Numbered from the stretch's first letter, positions 8,024 to 38,842 are shown. The stretch is DNA of 64,000 bases from a virus (IMGVR_UViG_3300042887_001670:127-64126), one strand, 5' to 3'. Numbers and translations: made by a program. The notes: generated by a model not told the origin, from the sequence alone.

Positions 8024-8110
8024 TGGTAGAGGCGGTGGGATTTGAACCCACAATGCCGTGAGGCCATCAGATTTTGAGTCTGACGCGTATGCCAGTTCCG
8101 CCAAGCCTCC
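8024..8110 (-). tRNA. tRNA-Leu(CAA)
   Basis: GGAGGCT..TGGC..TCAGA-CTCAAAA-TCTGA, long variable arm, GGTTCAAATCC, encoded CCA. Confidence 0.92.
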
Positions 8111-8532: not shown

Positions 8533-8609
8533 TGGTGTAAGCGGCAGGACTCGAACCTGCACCCAGCCTGTTATGAGCAGGCCGCTCTATCCAATTAAGC
8601 TACGCTTAC
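8533..8609 (-). tRNA. tRNA with CAT anticodon (elongator Met or Ile2)
   Basis: GTAAGCG/CGCTTAC acceptor stem, GCCTG-CTCATAA-CAGGC, GGTTCGAGTCC, ACCA end; lacks initiator hallmarks. Confidence 0.9.
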
Positions 8610-28171: not shown

Positions 28172-28915
28172 TCAATTTCCACCAGACTTTACAAAGGCAT
28201 CTCGTTCGTCAAGCCAAACAGCATCCGCTTCAGGTGAAATGGTGTTGCCCATCCAAGGGCCACCTAGCGTATAGTGGGCAATCTTTGCCGTCTGGATATC
28301 GTATCCCGGCTCACCGATAAGCGCGTTCCACTCTTGTGGTAGCGCGCCGATGTGCTTGTCTGGGTCTTTAATCCAGTCAAACCGATGTAAATCCCGCCCA
28401 GGCACCGAATTGATATGTGCAAGGTTCAAGCAATCATTTGCAAAATGATTGCAGTTGAATGCCATGACTGAGGACCAATTCTTGAAACTGTAGCTAGTCT
28501 GGATTTGACCATCCATCTTTAGCAGAGTGGATGGATTATACTGGTGCTTGACGCACATCACTGCATACTTGCTTTCTAGCAAGTCAAACAGTTTTGCAAT
28601 ATCGTCTAAGAACAGGACATCGCAATCGACAAAGATGGCCCATCCTGCATAGCCATATTTTGCTCTATGCAGGATTGGAGTCAAAAACCGGCTGATCGCG
28701 AACTCTGTTGCCTGCGGGGCTTCTGAAATCACGTCCCACAGTTTGCCTTCTCGCGTTTCAGTCTGACGCCAAATCATCCCTTGATCGCGTAAGTCGTTAA
28801 TTTTGAGAGGGACAACGCTGATGGGCACAGAGGCCCGCCGCTTCAAACTGAACTCTGCTACTTTATACGCTTCGACTTCTCGGCTATCGAAGCCCATATA
28901 GATGGTCGGCACCAT
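28172..28915 (-). CDS. Glycosyltransferase (GT-A fold, GT8-like)
   Basis: IYMGFDSRE, TEFAISRFLTP, FVDCD (DxD), KNWSSVM, EWN, HYTLGGPW. Confidence 0.85.
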   Translation of the reverse strand: MVPTIYMGFDSREVEAYKVAEFSLKRRASVPISVVPLKINDLRDQGMIWRQTETREGKLWDVISEAPQATEFAISRFLTPILHRAKYGYAGWAIFVDCDVLFLDDIAKLFDLLESKYAVMCVKHQYNPSTLLKMDGQIQTSYSFKNWSSVMAFNCNHFANDCLNLAHINSVPGRDLHRFDWIKDPDKHIGALPQEWNALIGEPGYDIQTAKIAHYTLGGPWMGNTISPEADAVWLDERDAFVKSGGN

Positions 28916-29619
28916 CAATCCCACCCAAGAATAAAATCGTCAACGACGCGCTGCTTAACCGTGGCGCCCCAAGACAAAAGCAATTCGAGTGCCGCATACT
29001 GCTTCCACTCAAAAATATCCCACGGCTTTTGCTCGATACAAATAATAGGTTTGCACCGCCGGATCATGCCTTCAGCACCAAGAACGATGGGATATTCATA
29101 CCCCTCTACGTCCATCTTGATCGCGCTTACAAAAGGATGGTTCTCTGCATCGAGCGTAGTTAAAGGCACGGTGTAGTTGATGGACGACGCCTCTCGCTTT
29201 GCGGTATCTTCCGAGGCGACATGAGTGCCCGATGTAACTTCGGGGCGATACTCCATGACCACTTCGCCAATTGCATTGCCGAGAGCCACACGCCGTAGCT
29301 CGACATTGGGCGTAGGCTTCTCTGGATGCTCAATGGTATTGAGCATAAAGCACCGCTGGTTAATCTCGATAGGCTCGTAGGCCACAACGCGGTCAAAAGC
29401 ACGGGCGAAGTGCATAGACCACATACCGACATTGCCACCTACGTCCAGCACTAGGTTGCGTCGGTTCGAAGGCGTGTGGTTGAGCATGGCGACTAAGGTA
29501 TGAAGCTGGTAACTCCCCTCGCCTTTGCTATTCTGCTTAGCAGCGCCTTCAAGGAAAGGCAAAAGGTGTTCCTCTGTGGCGGGAAGCCAAATTCCCGCCA
29601 CCTTCTTGATATCTGTCAT
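28915..29619 (-). CDS. FkbM-family SAM-dependent methyltransferase
   Basis: LDVGGNVG, YEP, IKMDVEGYE. Confidence 0.88.
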   Translation of the reverse strand: MTDIKKVAGIWLPATEEHLLPFLEGAAKQNSKGEGSYQLHTLVAMLNHTPSNRRNLVLDVGGNVGMWSMHFARAFDRVVAYEPIEINQRCFMLNTIEHPEKPTPNVELRRVALGNAIGEVVMEYRPEVTSGTHVASEDTAKREASSINYTVPLTTLDAENHPFVSAIKMDVEGYEYPIVLGAEGMIRRCKPIICIEQKPWDIFEWKQYAALELLLSWGATVKQRVVDDFILGWD

Positions 29620-31612: not shown

Positions 31613-32428
31613 TCAATCCGCGTCATAGGCACCATAATAGGGTAAAGGTCGCACAAAAAGCATAGCGTCGCTTCTATGCTCGCTTTGCTTTTTCATGTCA
31701 ATATCAAAATCACTTTCACTGTCAAATGCTTCCACCCATGCTTGGCACAGACGGCTACGAACAATGTCCTTGCTATTAAATCGGCAAACCTCCGCGCCAA
31801 TCTGATGGCGCTTTGCCAAATCAACTACGTAGGTTAGGCCAGAGTCGCGGATATCGCTCTGCTGTGGGTCGCCCGAGACGATAACCTTACAATCGCCAAG
31901 GCGCGTGACAAAAAGACGCAACTGTTCCTTGGTGCAGTTCTGCGCTTCGTCAAGCAGAACGATAGCGCCGCCGTCGAAAGTGCGGCCCCGCATGAACTGG
32001 AAAGGGGCGAACTCAATGGTCCCCTTACGGAGCCATTCTTGTGCGCGCACTTTGCCGACTAGCTTTTCAATCACATCTATAATGGGGATTGCCCATGGCG
32101 TAAACTTCATATTGAGGTCGCCAGGGAGGAAGCCAATATTCTCGCTGCGGTCAGAAGAAATCATGGGTCGAGCGACGATAAACTTCCTGCATCGCTCTGC
32201 CAGTATCTCTTGCACGGCATAATGCGTAGCGAGGTATGTCTTGCCTGCGCCTGCGGGGCCTAGTGCAAATACTTGCTGGTATTTCTGAATTGCTGAGAGA
32301 TACTTAGATTGTGCCGGGTTTTTTGGAGAAAGAGGAGCAAGACTAAACTCAGGCGTTTGGGCTTTTGGGGTTTTTGTGGCTTTGCGGGTCTGGCGCTTCT
32401 GAGATTTGGTCAGACGGATTGCGGCCAC
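31613..32428 (-). CDS. phoH: PhoH-family ATPase
   Basis: GPAGAGKTYLA, IGFLPGD, FMRGRTF, LDEAQN, GDPQQSD. Confidence 0.95.
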   Translation of the reverse strand: MAAIRLTKSQKRQTRKATKTPKAQTPEFSLAPLSPKNPAQSKYLSAIQKYQQVFALGPAGAGKTYLATHYAVQEILAERCRKFIVARPMISSDRSENIGFLPGDLNMKFTPWAIPIIDVIEKLVGKVRAQEWLRKGTIEFAPFQFMRGRTFDGGAIVLLDEAQNCTKEQLRLFVTRLGDCKVIVSGDPQQSDIRDSGLTYVVDLAKRHQIGAEVCRFNSKDIVRSRLCQAWVEAFDSESDFDIDMKKQSEHRSDAMLFVRPLPYYGAYDAD

Positions 32429-32531
32429 TGAAGTCTCCTATGCAAGTTTAGCCACTAAAAAGTAGAAAGGTCGGCGGCACTAAGCAATGCCTTGACTTAT
32501 CTTTCTCGGTTAAACGAGTATCCTCGGCCTT

Positions 32532-32569
32532 AAAAAAAATGCCGCCACTTTTTTGTGGCGGCATATTTT
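32532..32569 (-). terminator. Intrinsic terminator
   Basis: AAAAAAAATGCCGCCAC-ttttt-GTGGCGGCATATTTT. Confidence 0.8.
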
Positions 32570-32821
32570 TCAGTACATCCCGAGCGCCTTTAGATAGGCG
32601 TCCCGAATTGCCTCGCGCTCCTCTCGGTCATCCCTATCTTCCGCGCGCATCTTGATAACTTCACGGATAACCTTGGGGTCAAAACCCGCCCCCTTAGCCT
32701 CCGCCATGATATCCTTGATAGCGCTTTGGATATCCTTCTTTTCTTCATTAAGGCGTTCGACACGCTCAATGATGGAGAGAAGTCGGTCGGAGGCGATAGA
32801 GTTGTGGCCTGCTTCAGACAT
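32570..32821 (-). CDS. GapR/DUF2312 nucleoid-associated protein homolog
   Basis: DRLLSIIERVERLNEEKK.I...IKDIMAEAKGAGFDPKVIR...YLKALGM. Confidence 0.88.
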   Translation of the reverse strand: MSEAGHNSIASDRLLSIIERVERLNEEKKDIQSAIKDIMAEAKGAGFDPKVIREVIKMRAEDRDDREEREAIRDAYLKALGMY

Positions 32822-32826
32822 AGTTC

Positions 32827-33243
32827 TTAGTCCTCGTGGTTGATGGTTGTTGCGTTGTTCGCCAACATGGCGATACGATTCTCAATAAACGCAAAAATCT
32901 TTGGCGCTCGTGTCGGCAATTCAGCTAGTCCTGTGCCAAGACCGTCCGTAGGCACTACTACCGTCTTCCCTATCATCATAAACGAGTATGCGATAGTGAG
33001 TGGAAAACGGATGGCATCCTCGACAAACTCGAAATCTTCATCCTTAAAATAAGACGCTTTTTGCGTATCTGGTGCCCACTTAGTAGGCACTCCAAAACTA
33101 TTCGGGTGGCCCCGCGTGGTGCTTGCTTGCCCACCATAACCTTGGCGCCGCATATTATCGCCAAAAAGAAAAATTGTATTTGGAAATTTTTCAAGCACAT
33201 CTTGCTTAGAGATGTGTTTCTTGTAGATAAGCGTTCCAGTCAT
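32827..33243 (-). CDS. Conserved phage protein
   Basis: FLFGDN..R.G.GGQA..RG.PNSFGVPTK, DGLGTGLA. Confidence 0.6.
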   Translation of the reverse strand: MTGTLIYKKHISKQDVLEKFPNTIFLFGDNMRRQGYGGQASTTRGHPNSFGVPTKWAPDTQKASYFKDEDFEFVEDAIRFPLTIAYSFMMIGKTVVVPTDGLGTGLAELPTRAPKIFAFIENRIAMLANNATTINHED

Positions 33244-35702
33244 TTTCTATACCTTTTACCAGACCAGCCTTCGGCTTTGACGGGCAGCCCTGCCGCCCAA
33301 TCCGGCGTAGCGGCTACCAACGCTTCATACTCTGCCACGTTTCCGTAGCCCTCGTCAACCTCAGAAACCACTTCGTCATGAACTGTCAACAACACAGGGT
33401 AGTTGTGTTCCTCAAGTCGGAACATCGAGGATATCATGAGGTCGCGGGAGACAGCCTGCACCACGTTCTCGGTAAAGGTGCCAGGGCTTATAGTGGTGCG
33501 TTCCCATTTACGGGTAAGAGCGTTAACCGCGCTAATCTCTACGCCATTCTTCATCTCGCCCCAAGGTGTTTTTACCTTGCAGACGCGGGCTTCTGGGTAG
33601 TTGAGCGCACGGCCTGATGGTAAAAGCAGGCGCAGATTGCCATCGCGCATCCTGAACTTCATGTTCCGCAGTGTGACCACGCTGTTTGGGTTGCTGATTG
33701 CGCGCATCGCGGCGCGTTCCAAGGCATACCAAAGGCGTGGAATCTTAGAATAGGTTTCGCGATACAGAGTAACGACGCGCTTGTATTCTTCCTCTGGCAA
33801 AAAAATCTGGTCCTTGGCGCAAGTCAAAGCGAACTTAGGGGCACCCATGGCGTAGCCCAGACCCAATATACAATTATGAACAATTAAGGGTCCGCGATCC
33901 GTGTGTATCATGAACCTGTTGCGCGGCCCCGCATTTACAAGATCGTAGACGGGCTTCAAGGTCTTGGATTCTACGTTGCAGTTCCCCGACACTCCGCCTA
34001 TTGTTGACGTTATCTTTACGGGAGACAAACCGCAAATTTCCGGGGAGATAGCCGAGATTGTTGTCAGCCCTATCAAGCTCAAACTCAGGGACATCCCAGT
34101 TTTCAAGACTGAGCAGATACTTGAGGAATTCCCTTCGGTCTTTGATCCAAGGCTCGTAGACACGCAAACCCCGTCCACCATAGTGCGCGTATCCTGAATC
34201 ATTGGGATTGCAGCACCTGTTGATGATCGCAGATATCCGGTTAAGCAGCCGCGTCCTATGGTCATCATCGGGGCAAATATCCGCATAACCCCAAAAATTC
34301 TTTCGCGTAGTTCCGCTTTTAGTGTTGGCGCACAGCGCGCATCGCGTGCTGGTGAAATTTCTATACGAGTTATTTGGCACGGAGTATTCTCCGGGGCTGC
34401 AATCGCACTGGACAATAAGGCCCGCGGTCCCTCCCCTGACTCCAATAAAATATCCGGTGACGGTAAGTTTCCCGCTGCGGTGGCCAATGCTAGGGATAGG
34501 GAATCTCTGTCTTGCGCCAGAAACCCGGCGTCCAACCAACTCGTCCCGCACAACACTCGATGATCCGGAGTCAACCAAATCCCGCACAAAGGCAACACGC
34601 TTTGCGTGCAATTCGACAAGACTCCCAGATGCTCTACCCATTCTTCACCGTCCCAAACTTTCATATCAAAAGTGATTTGTTCTATCGGGACAAGCCCGTG
34701 GTCCGTATATACCAGAGTCCCTTCGGCAATGCACGCCTTTCCTAGTTGCCTCTCTTTAGGGTTGTCCTTTTTATTAAGAGGTTTTTTATAAACCACGCTC
34801 GCAAAGTTACAGTAAATATCATCGCCATTCGCAAATTGGTCAACAAGGTCTTGCTGCCCCGCCAACCACGCCAGAACACGGGCCTCGATAGCTGCGAAGT
34901 CTGCTGCGTAAAGCACCTTCCCTTTTGCGGCCATGACAAGGCTGCGGATTACGTCAGCAGCTACGGTCTGCACCGGGCCAAAGCACATCTCAATAAGGTC
35001 GATATCCCCTTTCTTAATATAGGGGATAGCCTCTTCAGGTTCTTTGAGAATTTCAGGGCGGGGCAAGTTCTGCAACTGAACCCCTTTGCCCGAGAAGCGT
35101 CCTGTGGACGCCCCGTGATAGAGCAAGTTGCCGTGGATGCGGCCTTCGCTATCAGCCATGTTGAGGATGGCTTGTAGCTTTTTTGTGGAGGACTTGGCGC
35201 CGATCTGGCGTATCTCTAGGACTTCGCGCACCTGTGGCGGCAGCGACGTATCTTTGAGCGCGTTAACGATGCCTTGCTTATCAAGACTCGTGAAGTGGCT
35301 GCCTTGCATGGCGAACCACTGGATCATCTTGTCGCGTTGGTTGATCGTCGTGACAAGACCATTCGTGATCTTGGCAAGACGTTCGTTCAGCCTGCCCCCC
35401 GCCTTCTCTACCAACTCTAGGGCCATGCGCGTGGTTTCAAGGTCTACGCTTATGCCCCTGTCATTGATGATTTGGTCAAGCAGATAGACTTGCCGCTCCG
35501 ATGGTGAAAGGGGGTAAAGCCTTGTCTCAGCTAGGCGTTCAGCCTCCACGTCTGTGCGGCAATATTGATATAGTTTCTCAAGGCGCGCGAGGTATTCGAT
35601 ACGCTGCTTTTCACGCGTTGCCTCTGTCTTGCCAGTGATCTCAAAATCGTCCCACCAACGGACGTGGGCGAAGTCGTCGTCGTCTTCGTCTATGTCACTC
35701 AT
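33240..35702 (-). CDS. DNA polymerase family A, C-terminal part (ExoIII + polymerase), intein-containing
   Basis: YCRTDV, HGASTGRFSG...QNLPR, DFAAIEARV (motif A), RQLGKA|CILGLGY (motif B), TVHDE (motif C). Confidence 0.93.
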   Translation of the reverse strand: MSDIDEDDDDFAHVRWWDDFEITGKTEATREKQRIEYLARLEKLYQYCRTDVEAERLAETRLYPLSPSERQVYLLDQIINDRGISVDLETTRMALELVEKAGGRLNERLAKITNGLVTTINQRDKMIQWFAMQGSHFTSLDKQGIVNALKDTSLPPQVREVLEIRQIGAKSSTKKLQAILNMADSEGRIHGNLLYHGASTGRFSGKGVQLQNLPRPEILKEPEEAIPYIKKGDIDLIEMCFGPVQTVAADVIRSLVMAAKGKVLYAADFAAIEARVLAWLAGQQDLVDQFANGDDIYCNFASVVYKKPLNKKDNPKERQLGKACIAEGTLVYTDHGLVPIEQITFDMKVWDGEEWVEHLGVLSNCTQSVLPLCGIWLTPDHRVLCGTSWLDAGFLAQDRDSLSLALATAAGNLPSPDILLESGEGPRALLSSAIAAPENTPCQITRIEISPARDARCAPTLKAELRERIFGVMRIFAPMMTIGRGCLTGYLRSSTGAAIPMIQDTRTMVDGVCVSTSLGSKTEGNSSSICSVLKTGMSLSLSLIGLTTISAISPEICGLSPVKITSTIGGVSGNCNVESKTLKPVYDLVNAGPRNRFMIHTDRGPLIVHNCILGLGYAMGAPKFALTCAKDQIFLPEEEYKRVVTLYRETYSKIPRLWYALERAAMRAISNPNSVVTLRNMKFRMRDGNLRLLLPSGRALNYPEARVCKVKTPWGEMKNGVEISAVNALTRKWERTTISPGTFTENVVQAVSRDLMISSMFRLEEHNYPVLLTVHDEVVSEVDEGYGNVAEYEALVAATPDWAAGLPVKAEGWSGKRYRK
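33873..34733 (-). mobile_element. Intein (287 aa) in PolA motif B
   Basis: Starts CIAEGTLV, block B LTPDHRV, ends VYDL..AGPRNRF....LIVHN followed by Cys; removal restores KA-CILGLGYAMG. Confidence 0.92.
33874..34641 (-). CDS. HNH homing endonuclease encoded in an alternative frame inside the intein
   Basis: GKLTV..QCDC, RC.NPN...Y.HYGGRGL.V...W, ELDRADNNLGYLPGNLRFV....N.NNRR. Confidence 0.88.
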   Translation of the reverse strand: MGRASGSLVELHAKRVAFVRDLVDSGSSSVVRDELVGRRVSGARQRFPIPSIGHRSGKLTVTGYFIGVRGGTAGLIVQCDCSPGEYSVPNNSYRNFTSTRCALCANTKSGTTRKNFWGYADICPDDDHRTRLLNRISAIINRCCNPNDSGYAHYGGRGLRVYEPWIKDRREFLKYLLSLENWDVPEFELDRADNNLGYLPGNLRFVSRKDNVNNRRSVGELQRRIQDLEARLRSCKCGAAQQVHDTHGSRTLNCS

Positions 35703-35711
35703 GCTCGTGCC

Positions 35712-36464
35712 TTAATACAGCGAAAAAGGCCCTGCTTCAAACGCTTTCTCAATCCGATCTTTTGCGATGGCAAAATATTTGTCGTCAAGTTCGATACCGA
35801 TGAACTTGCGGCCAAGGTTCATCGCCGCGACGCCGGTTGTGCCGCTGCCCATGGTGAAGTCGAGAACGGTTTCGTTGGGGTTGGTGTAGGTCTTGATAAG
35901 GTATTCCATGAGAGCGACGGGTTTTTGGGTGGGGTGCCCACAATTTTTGTCCATCCCAAAAGTCAGAATTGTTTTAGGGTATGAGTGGGTCCGTATGACT
36001 TGTAATTTCTGCTTAGTAGTTGCCCCTCCCATTAACTCTGTCCTGCTCGACTCTACGCTGGAACCTTTTTGTGGTTTAGATTTCAACGTCATCTGAGGGT
36101 CATATGTAGGCGCGTTGCTATAAAATACACTTATACTCTCATTTTGCGCCATTGGTCTTTTTTTTGCTACAAGATGCCCCCGGGCAGTTACTTTATCCCA
36201 CACCCAATCATACTTATACATTTTTATGTTACTGACACGCATGTGGGAAGAAAAAGGTTCCCCACCAAATAATACGACAGCACCGTTCTTCTTCGTGATG
36301 CGCTTCAACTGTGCCCACATCGGTTCAAACGGGATAACAGAATCCCATGAACACGCGGTCGTGCCATAAGGCGGGTCGGTCAAAACCATATCCACCGAAC
36401 CATCCGGGATTTCCTTCATACGCTCAAGGCAGTCGCCCTTGAGCAGCGTCAGCACGTCCTTCAT
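35712..36464 (-). CDS. DNA adenine/N4-cytosine methyltransferase (beta class), between the two pol halves
   Basis: GDCLE, TDPPY, HPTQKPVAL, LDFTMGSGTTG, FIGIE; ATGA overlap with pol N-fragment stop. Confidence 0.93.
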   Translation of the reverse strand: MKDVLTLLKGDCLERMKEIPDGSVDMVLTDPPYGTTACSWDSVIPFEPMWAQLKRITKKNGAVVLFGGEPFSSHMRVSNIKMYKYDWVWDKVTARGHLVAKKRPMAQNESISVFYSNAPTYDPQMTLKSKPQKGSSVESSRTELMGGATTKQKLQVIRTHSYPKTILTFGMDKNCGHPTQKPVALMEYLIKTYTNPNETVLDFTMGSGTTGVAAMNLGRKFIGIELDDKYFAIAKDRIEKAFEAGPFSLY

Positions 36465-36910
36465 ACTTTCTTCCCTTTCCTCGGCTTCGTCATTTTCAAC
36501 ATATGCCTGCTGCCTTCCATGTCCTTTTGGATCGGCAGGCTTAGTGCCTCGCCAAGCCCTTCCAATGACCGTGGAAGGGCCATGGCTGCCGCCATGGCGG
36601 CTGTGCAGAACCATTGCTCCAACGCCACAGGGGCGCAGCCATAGTGCGCTACGGCGATGTTCTTAGTAATCAGCCGTTCGAACTGCGCATTGTGCGCAAA
36701 AATCGGAAAACCCTGCCTGATATGCTTGTTCAAATCCATGGGCCACGGAAGATCAGGCGTCCATATCTGGACAGGTTCTGCGTTACGGCTATACCCCATG
36801 CACAGGATATCGGTGCTGGGGTGTTCAGCGTAGCGGTAGATGCCCACCAATTTGAGATTGGCGGTGGATTTAGTTTCGTAGTCAATGTGGTAAATGGGTG
36901 TATCTTGCAT
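36461..36910 (-). CDS. DNA polymerase A N-terminal fragment (ExoI/ExoII)
   Basis: IDYET, YAEHPST, AHNAQFER, LPRSLE...KDMEG..MLKMTKPR. Confidence 0.88.
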   Translation of the reverse strand: MQDTPIYHIDYETKSTANLKLVGIYRYAEHPSTDILCMGYSRNAEPVQIWTPDLPWPMDLNKHIRQGFPIFAHNAQFERLITKNIAVAHYGCAPVALEQWFCTAAMAAAMALPRSLEGLGEALSLPIQKDMEGSRHMLKMTKPRKGKKV

Positions 36911-36913
36911 TGG

Positions 36914-36944
36914 AAAAAAGAAGGGGCATTTCTGCCCCTTCTTC
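36914..36944 (-). terminator. Intrinsic terminator after SSB
   Basis: AGAAGGGGCA-loop-TGCCCCTTCT with U-tract on minus strand. Confidence 0.75.
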
Positions 36945-36951
36945 TCCTGCC

Positions 36952-37524
36952 TTAGAACAAGTCCTTGGCATCGCCTTCGCTGATATTGCTGCCAGCAACA
37001 TCATCGAAGTCGTTATCAGCGCTGCGCCCGCCGCCAGTTGCGATACGCTCGCCATCGTCAATGAACTGAACATTGTTCAGTCCAAACGACACGCCCTTGT
37101 TGCCGCTGTTGTCATACCCGAAAGCATTGACGCTCGCGCGCACGAAGCAGCCAGGGTAGAGGCGATCTTCGTCGGTGATGACAGGGAACTTGCCTTCGAC
37201 CTTCTTGCGGTCCACTACCTTGGGCTGCTTCTTGCTGCTTACGGTGATGAAGATGCAATCGTCGTCAAAGCCAGCGGTGCCTTCCTTGTCGGAACCAGGA
37301 CGGAAAGGCGAACGCACATTCTTTGGCGGCTTTTCACCAAACTTGGCCTTAGCGGCAGCGCCCGCCGCCTTCTTCAGATTCTGAAACTCGGCGGTTTCCT
37401 GCGCGGCCTTGTCGAACACAAGAACACAGGAAAACTTCGGCGTGTTGCCATTGAACCCACGAGGCTCAAACAGAGCGGGAAAAGCAAGTCGGGCCTTGGG
37501 GGTAACTACGTTCGTCTCGCTCAT
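36952..37524 (-). CDS. ssDNA-binding protein (DUF2815 / T7 gp2.5-like)
   Basis: RLAFPALFEP, YPGCFVRASV, GNKGVSFGLNNVQ..DGE, acidic tail ending in F. Confidence 0.9.
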   Translation of the reverse strand: MSETNVVTPKARLAFPALFEPRGFNGNTPKFSCVLVFDKAAQETAEFQNLKKAAGAAAKAKFGEKPPKNVRSPFRPGSDKEGTAGFDDDCIFITVSSKKQPKVVDRKKVEGKFPVITDEDRLYPGCFVRASVNAFGYDNSGNKGVSFGLNNVQFIDDGERIATGGGRSADNDFDDVAGSNISEGDAKDLF

Positions 37525-37615
37525 CTGAGCGTTCTCCTTGGAGCCGGGTTGGCGTGCATTTTGCCCCTTGTGCGCGCACACCATTGCCCAGCCACGATGT
37601 TAAAGAGGGGCAAAA

Positions 37616-38842
37616 TTATTCGTAGTTGCGGAAGCCGTCATGGTCCAACGCCAACGTGTCATCAAACTCTCCGCCGATCTGGACCACAACTGCGGGCCGT
37701 TTGTCGGATAGCGATGCGATGGTGTTGCCTGAAGATACTGCCACAATGACCTCTGCCAGTCTATCCTTAATCGCCTTCTTCTTACCAAGTTTTTCCTCGG
37801 CTTGCGCGGGCGAGATTAGCTTGCGCGTGAAGATATCGTCATCCTCAAGACCCATGCTATTCAGGAGGTCAATGGCATCATCTTCGCTTTGCCACTTGCG
37901 CTGCGCCCGCTTGGCTACGAGCTTGTAGCCGGGGACAACGCCACCCTGTTCCAACTTACGCTGCGCGTATGCTTGGACAGAGTTGATCCACCCCTTGAAT
38001 ACATCGGCCTTGGCGAGAATCTGGCCGATCTGTTCTTCGCTCAGGCCCTCGGGCTCAGGGGGCAAAAAACCATCGTCAAACTCCGCTTGTGCCAGTGCTA
38101 CCGCCTGTTCGTGTAGGCGAGGGCACTTAGGCTGCGCCAAGCAGAACCGGCAATGGTCGCCCGCGTTAAGGGCAGCATCGGCCTCCTGCGTCTTGTGTGC
38201 TGCGGCGAGAAGGTCATCCGCGAACTCGATGCGAAGTGAGTAGGCGTCTGTCTCGAAAGACCTGATATGCCCATCAGCATGGCGGTAGCGGGGCTGCACG
38301 ATGACCATACGGATATGGCGCGGGAAGATGCCTTCCTGTGCCTCCAAAGCCAGCATGGCGCCCAAGGCATAGTAAGAAAGCTGAGGAGAGTTCTGCACCT
38401 TCACAGGCACACCAGCGCCATACTTCAGGTCCATTACGGTCAGGCGCTTCTCACGTTCATTCCAGATGACCGCATCCGCTGTGCCAAACATAGGCACAGG
38501 CGGATTAAGGGCCTCTAGCGTGAACCGTTGTTCGATGAACAGTTTGTTGCCTTTGGCTTCGGCCAGCACCGCGTCAACATAGACCTGCACCGCCTCAGCC
38601 ATATCTTCCGTGACTTCAAAGCCCTCAATCTCCTGCTCTAAGAAGTCAGAAGCAGGCTTGCCTTGGCGCAAGCACATCTCCGCCAACTCGTGTGCTGCGG
38701 TGCCTTCGCGTGCATATTCAGAAGAGATATTTGGCATCCCCTCAGATAGATTGACAGAGCCAGGGCAGGCGATCCACCGAGAAGCGGAACTCGCGCCCAA
38801 AGAAGCATGGGCACGATCAGCATGGACAGGCAGGTTAGACAT
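37616..38842 (-). CDS. Cas4-like PD-(D/E)xK exonuclease (DUF2800)
   Basis: HASLGASS..RW..CPGS, EGTAAH, GTAD, DLKYG, QLSYYA, GDHCRFC. Confidence 0.9.
   Translation of the reverse strand: MSNLPVHADRAHASLGASSASRWIACPGSVNLSEGMPNISSEYAREGTAAHELAEMCLRQGKPASDFLEQEIEGFEVTEDMAEAVQVYVDAVLAEAKGNKLFIEQRFTLEALNPPVPMFGTADAVIWNEREKRLTVMDLKYGAGVPVKVQNSPQLSYYALGAMLALEAQEGIFPRHIRMVIVQPRYRHADGHIRSFETDAYSLRIEFADDLLAAAHKTQEADAALNAGDHCRFCLAQPKCPRLHEQAVALAQAEFDDGFLPPEPEGLSEEQIGQILAKADVFKGWINSVQAYAQRKLEQGGVVPGYKLVAKRAQRKWQSEDDAIDLLNSMGLEDDDIFTRKLISPAQAEEKLGKKKAIKDRLAEVIVAVSSGNTIASLSDKRPAVVVQIGGEFDDTLALDHDGFRNYE

Follow-up and report, generated by a model that had tools for sequence, protein, structure and literature searches.

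We analysed a 64,000-nucleotide (nt) stretch of viral DNA, hereafter the window (IMGVR_UViG_3300042887_001670:127-64126), which covers nearly the whole of an uncultured viral record of 64,126 bases that was assembled from a metagenome and has a CheckV completeness estimate of 64%. All features given below with coordinates in the window lie on its minus strand. Here a family A DNA polymerase (PolA) is encoded by two open reading frames (ORFs), with a DNA methyltransferase gene between them. The upstream ORF, the N fragment (36461..36910), encodes 149 amino acids (aa) that make up the N-terminal half of a DEDDy 3'-5' exonuclease domain, including the ExoI and ExoII motifs, and it matched phrog_17 'DNA polymerase' (expectation value, E, 4.1e-15). 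The downstream ORF, the C fragment (33240..35702), encodes ExoIII together with the thumb, palm, and fingers (PF00476, E 1.8e-24). Its product comprises 820 aa as a precursor and 533 aa when a 287-aa intein is left out, a length close to the 531-533 aa of intein-less relatives.

The gene between the fragments is an orphan beta-type N6/N4 DNA methyltransferase of 250 aa (35712..36464; PF01555, E 6.7e-34; phrog_67, E 5.9e-80), which is optional cargo at this position. Its start codon and the N-fragment stop codon share an ATGA overlap (36461..36464), as they do in the related loci L006, L007, L072, and L073. A spacer of 9 nt (ggcacgagc; 35703..35711) separates its TAA from the C-fragment ATG. 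The N fragment stops after residue 149, and polymerase coding resumes 762 nt further on. Exonuclease and polymerase are thus not on one polypeptide in the window, and they are contiguous only in relatives that are at most 70% identical. An earlier reading of the window from its sequence alone (the sequence-only reading) had described this anatomy, and it held at all coordinates: a 149-aa ORF with ExoI and ExoII, a separate ORF with ExoIII and the polymerase, and an intact methyltransferase that is ATGA-coupled to the N fragment and ends 9 nt before the C-fragment ATG. The ends that it gave for the fragments, KPRKGKKV for the N fragment and MSDIDEDDDD for the start of the C fragment, are likewise seen in the translation.

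The residues of the proofreading site are conserved on both chains. In the N fragment, the ExoI motif IDYET (residues 9-13; 36872..36886) contains D10 and E12, which are nearly invariant among 18 N fragments, and the ExoII motif HNAQFE (residues 73-78, with N74, F77, and E78; 36677..36694) has H73, N74, A75, F77, and E78 invariant in 18 of 18. In the C fragment, the ExoIII motif YCRTD (residues 47-51; 35550..35564) contains the catalytic pair Y47 and D51, which together with C48 are invariant in all 21 C-fragment-type sequences compared. The patterns DxE, Nx2-3[FY][DE], and Yx3D are therefore all present and conserved, although spread across two chains; the last residue of ExoII is E or D in contiguous relatives. 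Further along the C-fragment translation we found DFAAIEARV, RQLGKA..LGLGYAMG, and VHDE, which we take to be polymerase motifs A, B, and C.

Substitution patterns indicate that purifying selection acts on both polymerase halves. The ratio of nonsynonymous to synonymous divergence (dN/dS; Nei-Gojobori, window versus nine relatives) was 0.05-0.27 for the N fragment, with dS up to 1.2, and 0.02-0.12 for the C fragment in the same comparison (first 300 and last 200 codons). Against L007, for example, the N fragment gave a dN of 0.104 and a dS of 1.17. The N fragment matched no Pfam family, and a search against PDB sequences returned one chance match (E 1.7). Modelled alone with AlphaFold2 (AF2), it reached a mean predicted local distance difference test (pLDDT) score of 81.4, high at residues 11-100 and moderate (45-69) at residues 101-149. 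A Foldseek search with this model gave nothing at E <=0.001, the best match being the phiVC8 polymerase at E 3.2e-3. Although weak, the named top matches were dominated by exonuclease domains of the proofreading or DnaQ-like kind and by DNA polymerases that bear an exonuclease (phiVC8 and G20c PolA, Pol III epsilon, RNase T, T7, phi29, and Klenow).

The split is shared by close relatives. A search among proteins of similar length revealed 17 stand-alone N-fragment homologues of 112-162 aa (15 of them at 146-153 aa) that are 50-93% identical to the N fragment. When aligned, all 17 and the window (n=18) end at one position, after KPRKG. A search among longer proteins found the closest full-length proteins at 64-70% identity; the closest, P0018, has 678 aa and is 68% identical. 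A total of 150 loci emerged when viral, genome, and metagenome contigs were scanned: 26 split rows (16 distinct N-region sequences; 15 without L018), 107 contiguous rows (92 distinct; 31-68% identical), 16 rows in which the C part was not reached, and the window itself. Wherever N-fragment identity was at least 70% and both parts could be seen, the locus is split. We read the split as a trait that is fixed and passed on within a single clade of uncultured lake phages. In the phage collection that we searched, identity to the N fragment reached at most 47%, and cultured members of the split clade are thus absent from it. One record in that collection, H23, had matched across two annotated features; it proved to encode a contiguous 669-aa polymerase and was set aside. 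The only relative found in prokaryote genomes was L018 (L018:6001-6431; 40% identical), on a contig of a Melainabacteria metagenome-assembled genome. Its polymerase has a frame break within the N-terminal exonuclease region, which the remnant of a prophage or a misassembly might explain.

Junctions were compared across 18 distinct split loci, a count that takes in the window and also L073, where the contig breaks off within the insert. Twelve of the 18 have no insert, only a stop/start overlap. In ten of these twelve the N-fragment TGA overlaps a GTG start (GTGA), and in the other two, L076 and L077, an 8-nt overlap, TTGTCTGA, uses a TTG start. The methyltransferase occupies the junction in five loci (the window, L006, L007, L072, and L073), and in L078 the junction holds an unrelated 105-aa ORF (MTFEDEEDWFYQ...; L078:867-1184) that belongs to no Pfam family. 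Because the twelve insert-free loci are still split, with the two ORFs overlapping in different frames, the claim in the title of the sequence-only reading that the methyltransferase divides the polymerase is not supported. The relatives that it had suggested looking for, split but without the methyltransferase, are these same twelve loci, and its view of this gene as an inserted element, here a dispensable one, is supported. The split appears to be old and is independent of METHYLTRANSFERASE (the methyltransferase), and cargo genes sit where the two pieces of the polymerase gene meet.

A tree of C fragments placed the split loci in an 18-row clade (support 100/100) with an unresolved three-way fork among the main split group, the split pair L077/L078, and the contiguous pair L028/L079. 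Methyltransferase-bearing and empty alleles were interleaved in three subclades. The insert-free junction sequences fit neither a simple ATGA-to-ATGA deletion of the methyltransferase nor its clean insertion.

Alignment with contiguous PolA homologues, a check that had been suggested earlier, placed the break in a variable loop. The cut follows the KDMxG..LKM.KPR block and precedes the ExoIII helix Y.YC..D, and the loop measures 40-48 aa in three contiguous relatives (L010, L028, and L079). In the nearest contiguous sisters, L028 and L079, it reads KPRAVDEDGVRWWDTLEITGK, where the window has KPRKGKKV and a stop, followed by MSDIDEDDDDFAHVRWWDDFEITGK at the head of the C fragment. A basic-then-acidic loop already exists in contiguous relatives (KPRAVDEDG in L028 and KPRRPRKDEPE in L010), and the pattern therefore predates the cut. 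Charge is amplified in the split forms, with a net +6 to +7 on the tail of the N fragment and -5 to -7 on the first 14 residues of the C-fragment head. It is possible that these charge-complementary termini would aid assembly; they are absent from the confident contacts of the complex model described next.

To model the complex, the N fragment was paired with residues 1-325 of the C fragment. The pair scored 0.83, and the best of three controls scored 0.11. Among solved complexes, 116 of 157 attained the mark that we applied to this score, as did 2 of 215 mismatched pairs. Runs agreed in at least 78% of contacts, and the partner pLDDT was at least 83. In the modelled interface, C-fragment residues 41-80 meet N-fragment residues 8-12, 21-41, and 71-79. 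The ExoIII helix (C-fragment residues 41-80) packs on the ExoI and ExoII strands, and D51 touches D10.

The methyltransferase shows the marks of an exchangeable gene. PF01555 covers its residues 24-235, with TDPPYG at residues 29-34 and MGSGTTG at 205-211. DPPY (motif IV) near the N terminus therefore precedes FxGSGTT (motif I) near the C terminus, an order that we take to define the beta class. The nearest solved chains are N6-adenine enzymes, CcrM (6pbd, E 8.5e-22), DpnA, RsrI, and MboIIA, and the enzyme is probably of the N6-adenine type. No restriction endonuclease lies beside it, as both of its neighbours are polymerase fragments. The methyltransferase frame stays open for 150 nt further upstream (35712-36614), to an ATG within the N fragment (MVLHSRHGG...). 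This extension is open in L001-L003 and not in L004, L008, and L075, and for this reason is probably non-coding.

Variation within the gene is concentrated in its core. At the DNA level the flanks of the methyltransferase are 83-100% identical to those in L006, compared with 27-63% for an AT-richer central region (35940..36285) that we presume to be the target-recognition domain. The sequence-only reading had noted a visibly AT-richer core; measured in 200-nt windows, the G+C fraction is 0.41-0.47 over approximately 35900-36400 and 0.50-0.59 on the flanks. In 30-nt windows the core ranges over 0.34-0.50, with one window at 0.57. The four full variants (the window, L006:6447-7217, L007:6435-7133, and L072:510-1268) are alike over the first 34 aa, up to and including DPPYG, and again over the last ~75 aa, but differ in their cores. 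In lake metagenomes (runs X2, X3, and X5), contigs that match the conserved ends turn unlike at or near 35927-35936 and 36331-36372. The most economical reading is that the cargo gene has been moved and re-cored by homologous recombination.

The C fragment also contains a 287-aa insertion (33873..34733), recognised by its in-frame presence or absence among relatives, which occupies C-fragment residues 324-610 within polymerase motif B. Its borders read RQLGKA/CIAEG...LIVHN/CILGLGYAMG, where the intein-less L001 reads RQLGKASVLGLGYAMG. The insertion was present in 5 of 15 loci covering the site. Cys1, TPDH (block B, TxxH), and the terminal HN are invariant in six intein sequences, and for the +1 Cys our observation is limited to the window. 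A profile built from these six matched only intein chains in the PDB, weakly (NEQ068 at E 8e-4, PI-MtuI at E 0.012, and others to E 1.2). No Pfam family, neither Hint nor HNH, matched at E up to 1, and an AF2 model (mean pLDDT 31.1) was unusable. One low-depth contig (2.4) in run X2 skips 940 bases around the intein (33860-34801) and may point to an allele without the intein in the same lake sample.

Nested in the intein in another frame is an ORF of 255 aa (33874..34641) for an HNH homing endonuclease (phrog_374 'HNH endonuclease', E 2.6e-27). The intein frame contained 0 stops in 285 codons read, compared with 4-27 in the other four frames. The same offset between intein and HNH frames occurs in L002, L004, and L072, as well as in the distant contiguous polymerases L056/L146 and L063, which are more conserved in the HNH frame (49-58% identity) than in the intein frame (35-37%). 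Inteins with an endonuclease in an overlapping frame and an open intein frame have been described for Endo VII-like and LAGLIDADG enzymes (bioRxiv 10.1101/2025.01.02.630785, 10.64898/2026.09.14.751524; the sources cited here and below were available in part, and statements on them hold for those parts). The element in the window resembles these in having its splicing domain in the host frame and its endonuclease in an overlapping one. It differs in carrying an HNH enzyme in a family A polymerase; in the available text HNH is mentioned only as an in-frame type. It is a rare type of intein, with an out-of-frame HNH endonuclease in the same gene.

We consider it likely that this locus encodes a polymerase of two non-covalently associated chains whose proofreading site is composite, and that the junction offers a slot in which anti-restriction methylases are carried as cargo. 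The sequence-only reading had proposed a two-chain PolA with an exonuclease site drawn from both chains, and the common cut in 18 of 18 sequences, the selection on both halves, the conserved residues, and the complex model all speak for it. A family A DNA polymerase would be made as two polypeptides that associate without covalent rejoining. The N fragment would supply D10, E12, and E78 (ExoI and ExoII), and the C fragment Y47 and D51 (ExoIII) along with the whole polymerase domain; with ExoI and ExoII from one chain and ExoIII from the other, the proofreading site would be composite. In insert-free members the ORF overlap of 4-8 nt (GTGA or TTGTCTGA) would couple translation of the two chains. 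In methyltransferase-bearing loci, the ATGA upstream and the 9-nt spacer downstream would allow three proteins to be made from one message, presumably by coupling. The C fragment would have to splice out its intein before becoming active. The conserved ends of the methyltransferase and the polymerase flanks would let recombination move the gene in and out and swap its central specificity region.

A broader version of this proposal is more doubtful, and we offer it tentatively. In it, the break is kept as a useful, translationally coupled expression slot within a replication operon, recombination swaps cargo genes and specificity cores as a population-level anti-restriction switch, and the basic tail and acidic head are adapted to hold the chains together, as in NrdA of phage Aeh1.

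Several points weigh against these interpretations. Single-chain PolA exonuclease domains have been solved, and a pass of the complex model therefore signifies likeness to them, not binding as such; the model was, in addition, run on alignments of our own making. Klenow has D in ExoII where the window has E, though contiguous relatives share the E. The C-fragment tree is compatible with, rather than proof of, a single origin of the split, and because of its three-way fork it does not decide whether the split or the methyltransferase came first. Orphan phage methyltransferases generally serve anti-restriction, and it is from family membership alone that we would assign this role, and a specificity, to the enzyme here. 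Finally, the assignment of the 287-aa insertion as a class 1 intein draws on motifs and weak profile matches rather than on a fold.

Other explanations would restore a single polypeptide. The halves might be rejoined, with the methyltransferase in a self-splicing intron or with a split intein ligating the two proteins, which would give a mature polymerase of one chain. Introns and inteins are indeed known from phage polymerase genes, this one has an intein 1 kb downstream, and fractured genes with split inteins are known (PMC2677866). However, a search of Rfam over 32500-37500 on both strands at E up to 1 returned no intron family, only four unrelated matches (E 0.067-0.42) far below gathering thresholds, in keeping with the earlier remark that no intron structure is visible. 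Only 0 nt and 9 nt on the two sides of the methyltransferase are non-coding, which leaves no room for a ribozyme structure outside coding sequence. Nor do the termini resemble a split intein: the N-fragment tail extends 8 aa past the last conserved exonuclease block, the C-fragment head has ~10 acidic-rich aa, and neither carries Hint blocks. The twelve insert-free relatives, moreover, keep the stop and the different frames. We regard rejoining as extremely unlikely. Fusion could instead arise from a programmed -1 frameshift at the GTGA of insert-free relatives, which would make the methyltransferase allele of the window recent and possibly crippling. The 4-nt overlap of 10 of the 12 insert-free loci does set the ORFs one frame apart, an A-rich run (GGGCAAAAAG) lies just upstream, and in L076 and L077 the overlap is 8 nt long and the start codon TTG. 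Yet the stop (GTC GCG TGA) has no slippery heptamer, and the start stays at the same C-fragment codon in three different junction sequences (GTGA with a KVA tail, GTGA with a KSA tail, and TTGTCTGA). Methyltransferase alleles also occur in three subclades and several lakes, with flanks that are intact and under selection, and frameshifting thus seems to us improbable.

Two further explanations concern whether the break is real and whether the N fragment still works. A metagenome-assembled contig from a record of incomplete length (CheckV, 64%) invites the suspicion that the real gene is contiguous and that the insert or frame break is chimeric or a sequencing error. We give this a negligible probability, as contigs from independent lake-water runs confirmed both junctions and did not bear out misassembly. 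In run X3, contigs bridge them over 33844-35826 with 0 differences and over 36044-36898 with 1 difference, and run X2 holds 35652-36464 with 0 differences; these runs come from different studies. Run X2 also contains two methyltransferase-less joints in which the insert is replaced by 6 and 12 other letters, one of them an L008-type junction. Stretches of the window that lack coverage in runs X5 and X8 carry no information. L006, L007, L072, and L073 hold the methyltransferase at the identical place, and the GTGA junction is common to ten contigs in two sequence versions. The N fragment could, alternatively, be a decaying leftover beside a polymerase without proofreading, or have taken on a new role. 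Its lack of a Pfam family and the pLDDT of 45-69 for residues 101-149 when modelled alone would suit this idea. Decay is difficult to reconcile with a dN/dS much like that of the C fragment, with a length held at 146-153 aa in 15 of 17 homologues, and with catalytic residues that are invariant or nearly so, those of ExoIII on the other chain being equally invariant. We judge it to be quite unlikely. The two-chain polymerase thus stands as the reading that we prefer.

The split polymerase lies in a tightly packed row of minus-strand genes: a DUF2800 nuclease, a single-stranded DNA-binding protein, the N fragment, the methyltransferase, the C fragment, and a DUF7831 gene. The two upstream neighbours are the DUF2800/PD-(D/E)XK nuclease (37616..38842; PF10926, E 2.4e-93) and the Enc34-type single-stranded DNA-binding protein (36952..37584; PF10991, E 1.5e-41). 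Parts of this upstream module recur in IMG/VR loci, DUF2800 in L010-L013, L015, and L016, and the binding protein in L010 and L011. Scanning 33000-37700 for promoters and terminators was uninformative: it gave 3 and 6 sites, respectively, where 3.4 and 5.3 would be expected, and no minus-strand terminator between the genes. Four RNA-type runs (X21-X24) contain shares of 0.05-0.11 of the sequence words of the stretch. Elsewhere the window encodes tail genes, a ribonucleotide reductase, helicases, and a primase. It also has a second methyltransferase-like gene (28915-29619; phrog_8156, E 1.4e-21), a PhoH-like gene (31613-32428; phrog_170, E 9.7e-70), and two tRNA genes, for Leu (CAA; 8024-8110) and Met (CAT; 8533-8609).

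Among phages with a contiguous PolA, Rhizobium phage RHph_N65, Roseobacter phage RDJL Phi 1, and Pseudomonas phage PaMx74 are 39-47% identical over the N fragment among the matches listed; they differ in having a single-chain polymerase. Split replicative polymerases are known from the Aeromonas phages 25 and 44RR, where the family B gp43 is divided into 43A and 43B (PMC2988022). As in our clade, the polymerase is encoded by two genes, with an insert (seg) in one relative and a short intercistronic stretch in another, and the same question was raised of whether the insert caused the split or invaded an existing one. The gp43 case differs in its polymerase family and its homing-endonuclease insert, where the window has a family A enzyme cut between ExoII and ExoIII and holds a methyltransferase and no nuclease at the break.

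A close parallel in arrangement is the ribonucleotide reductase of phage Aeh1, in which mobE lies between NrdA-a and NrdA-b (PMC3045599). There too the active site is spread over two chains, the gene between the halves overlaps its neighbours, and a basic C-terminal tail upstream faces an acidic N-terminal tail downstream. The Aeh1 tails consist of AT-rich sequence of foreign origin and proved essential; the charged ends in the window derive instead from the loop of contiguous relatives. Two features of the nrdA/mobE type, contiguity in relatives and selection on both pieces, are found in the window. A homing endonuclease at the break is not: the window insert matches PF01555 only, and the ORF in L078 has no Pfam family.

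Family A-type polymerases in two ORFs have been described in clade B of T7-like cyanophages, whose exonuclease domain is in a separate ORF (PMC12695635), and in the OM43 phages MEP401/402, in which a small ORF lies between the halves of a split polymerase (PMC10580990). By description, the cyanophage case is set apart by its whole exonuclease domain being separate, whereas the cut in the window runs through that domain. PhiKZ likewise forms its polymerase and exonuclease from two genes, as a stable two-subunit complex resolved by cryo-EM (PMC13648687), although this is a family B enzyme split in a palm insertion and encoded by genes that lie far apart (gp82 and gp50). Our literature search, which had most subscription journals outside its coverage, returned no PolA cut between ExoII and ExoIII and no methyltransferase at a PolA break. 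What is new is the combination of a cut through the DEDDy fold, the presence of every intermediate state in one clade, a methyltransferase with exchangeable cores, and an intein with an out-of-frame HNH endonuclease.

Split phage polymerases are already known, and in the other cases, as far as the available text describes them, the cut separates whole domains (cyanophage clade B) or falls within the polymerase part, in a palm insertion (PhiKZ). In the clade described here the cut passes through the proofreading fold itself, and for this reason the catalytic residues lie on two chains. Contiguous genes, split genes with an empty junction, split genes with four methyltransferase variants, and a split gene with another insert occur side by side. 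This makes the clade well suited to asking how a composite exonuclease assembles, whether subunit supply can tune proofreading, and whether gene breaks last as landing sites for defence-evasion genes.

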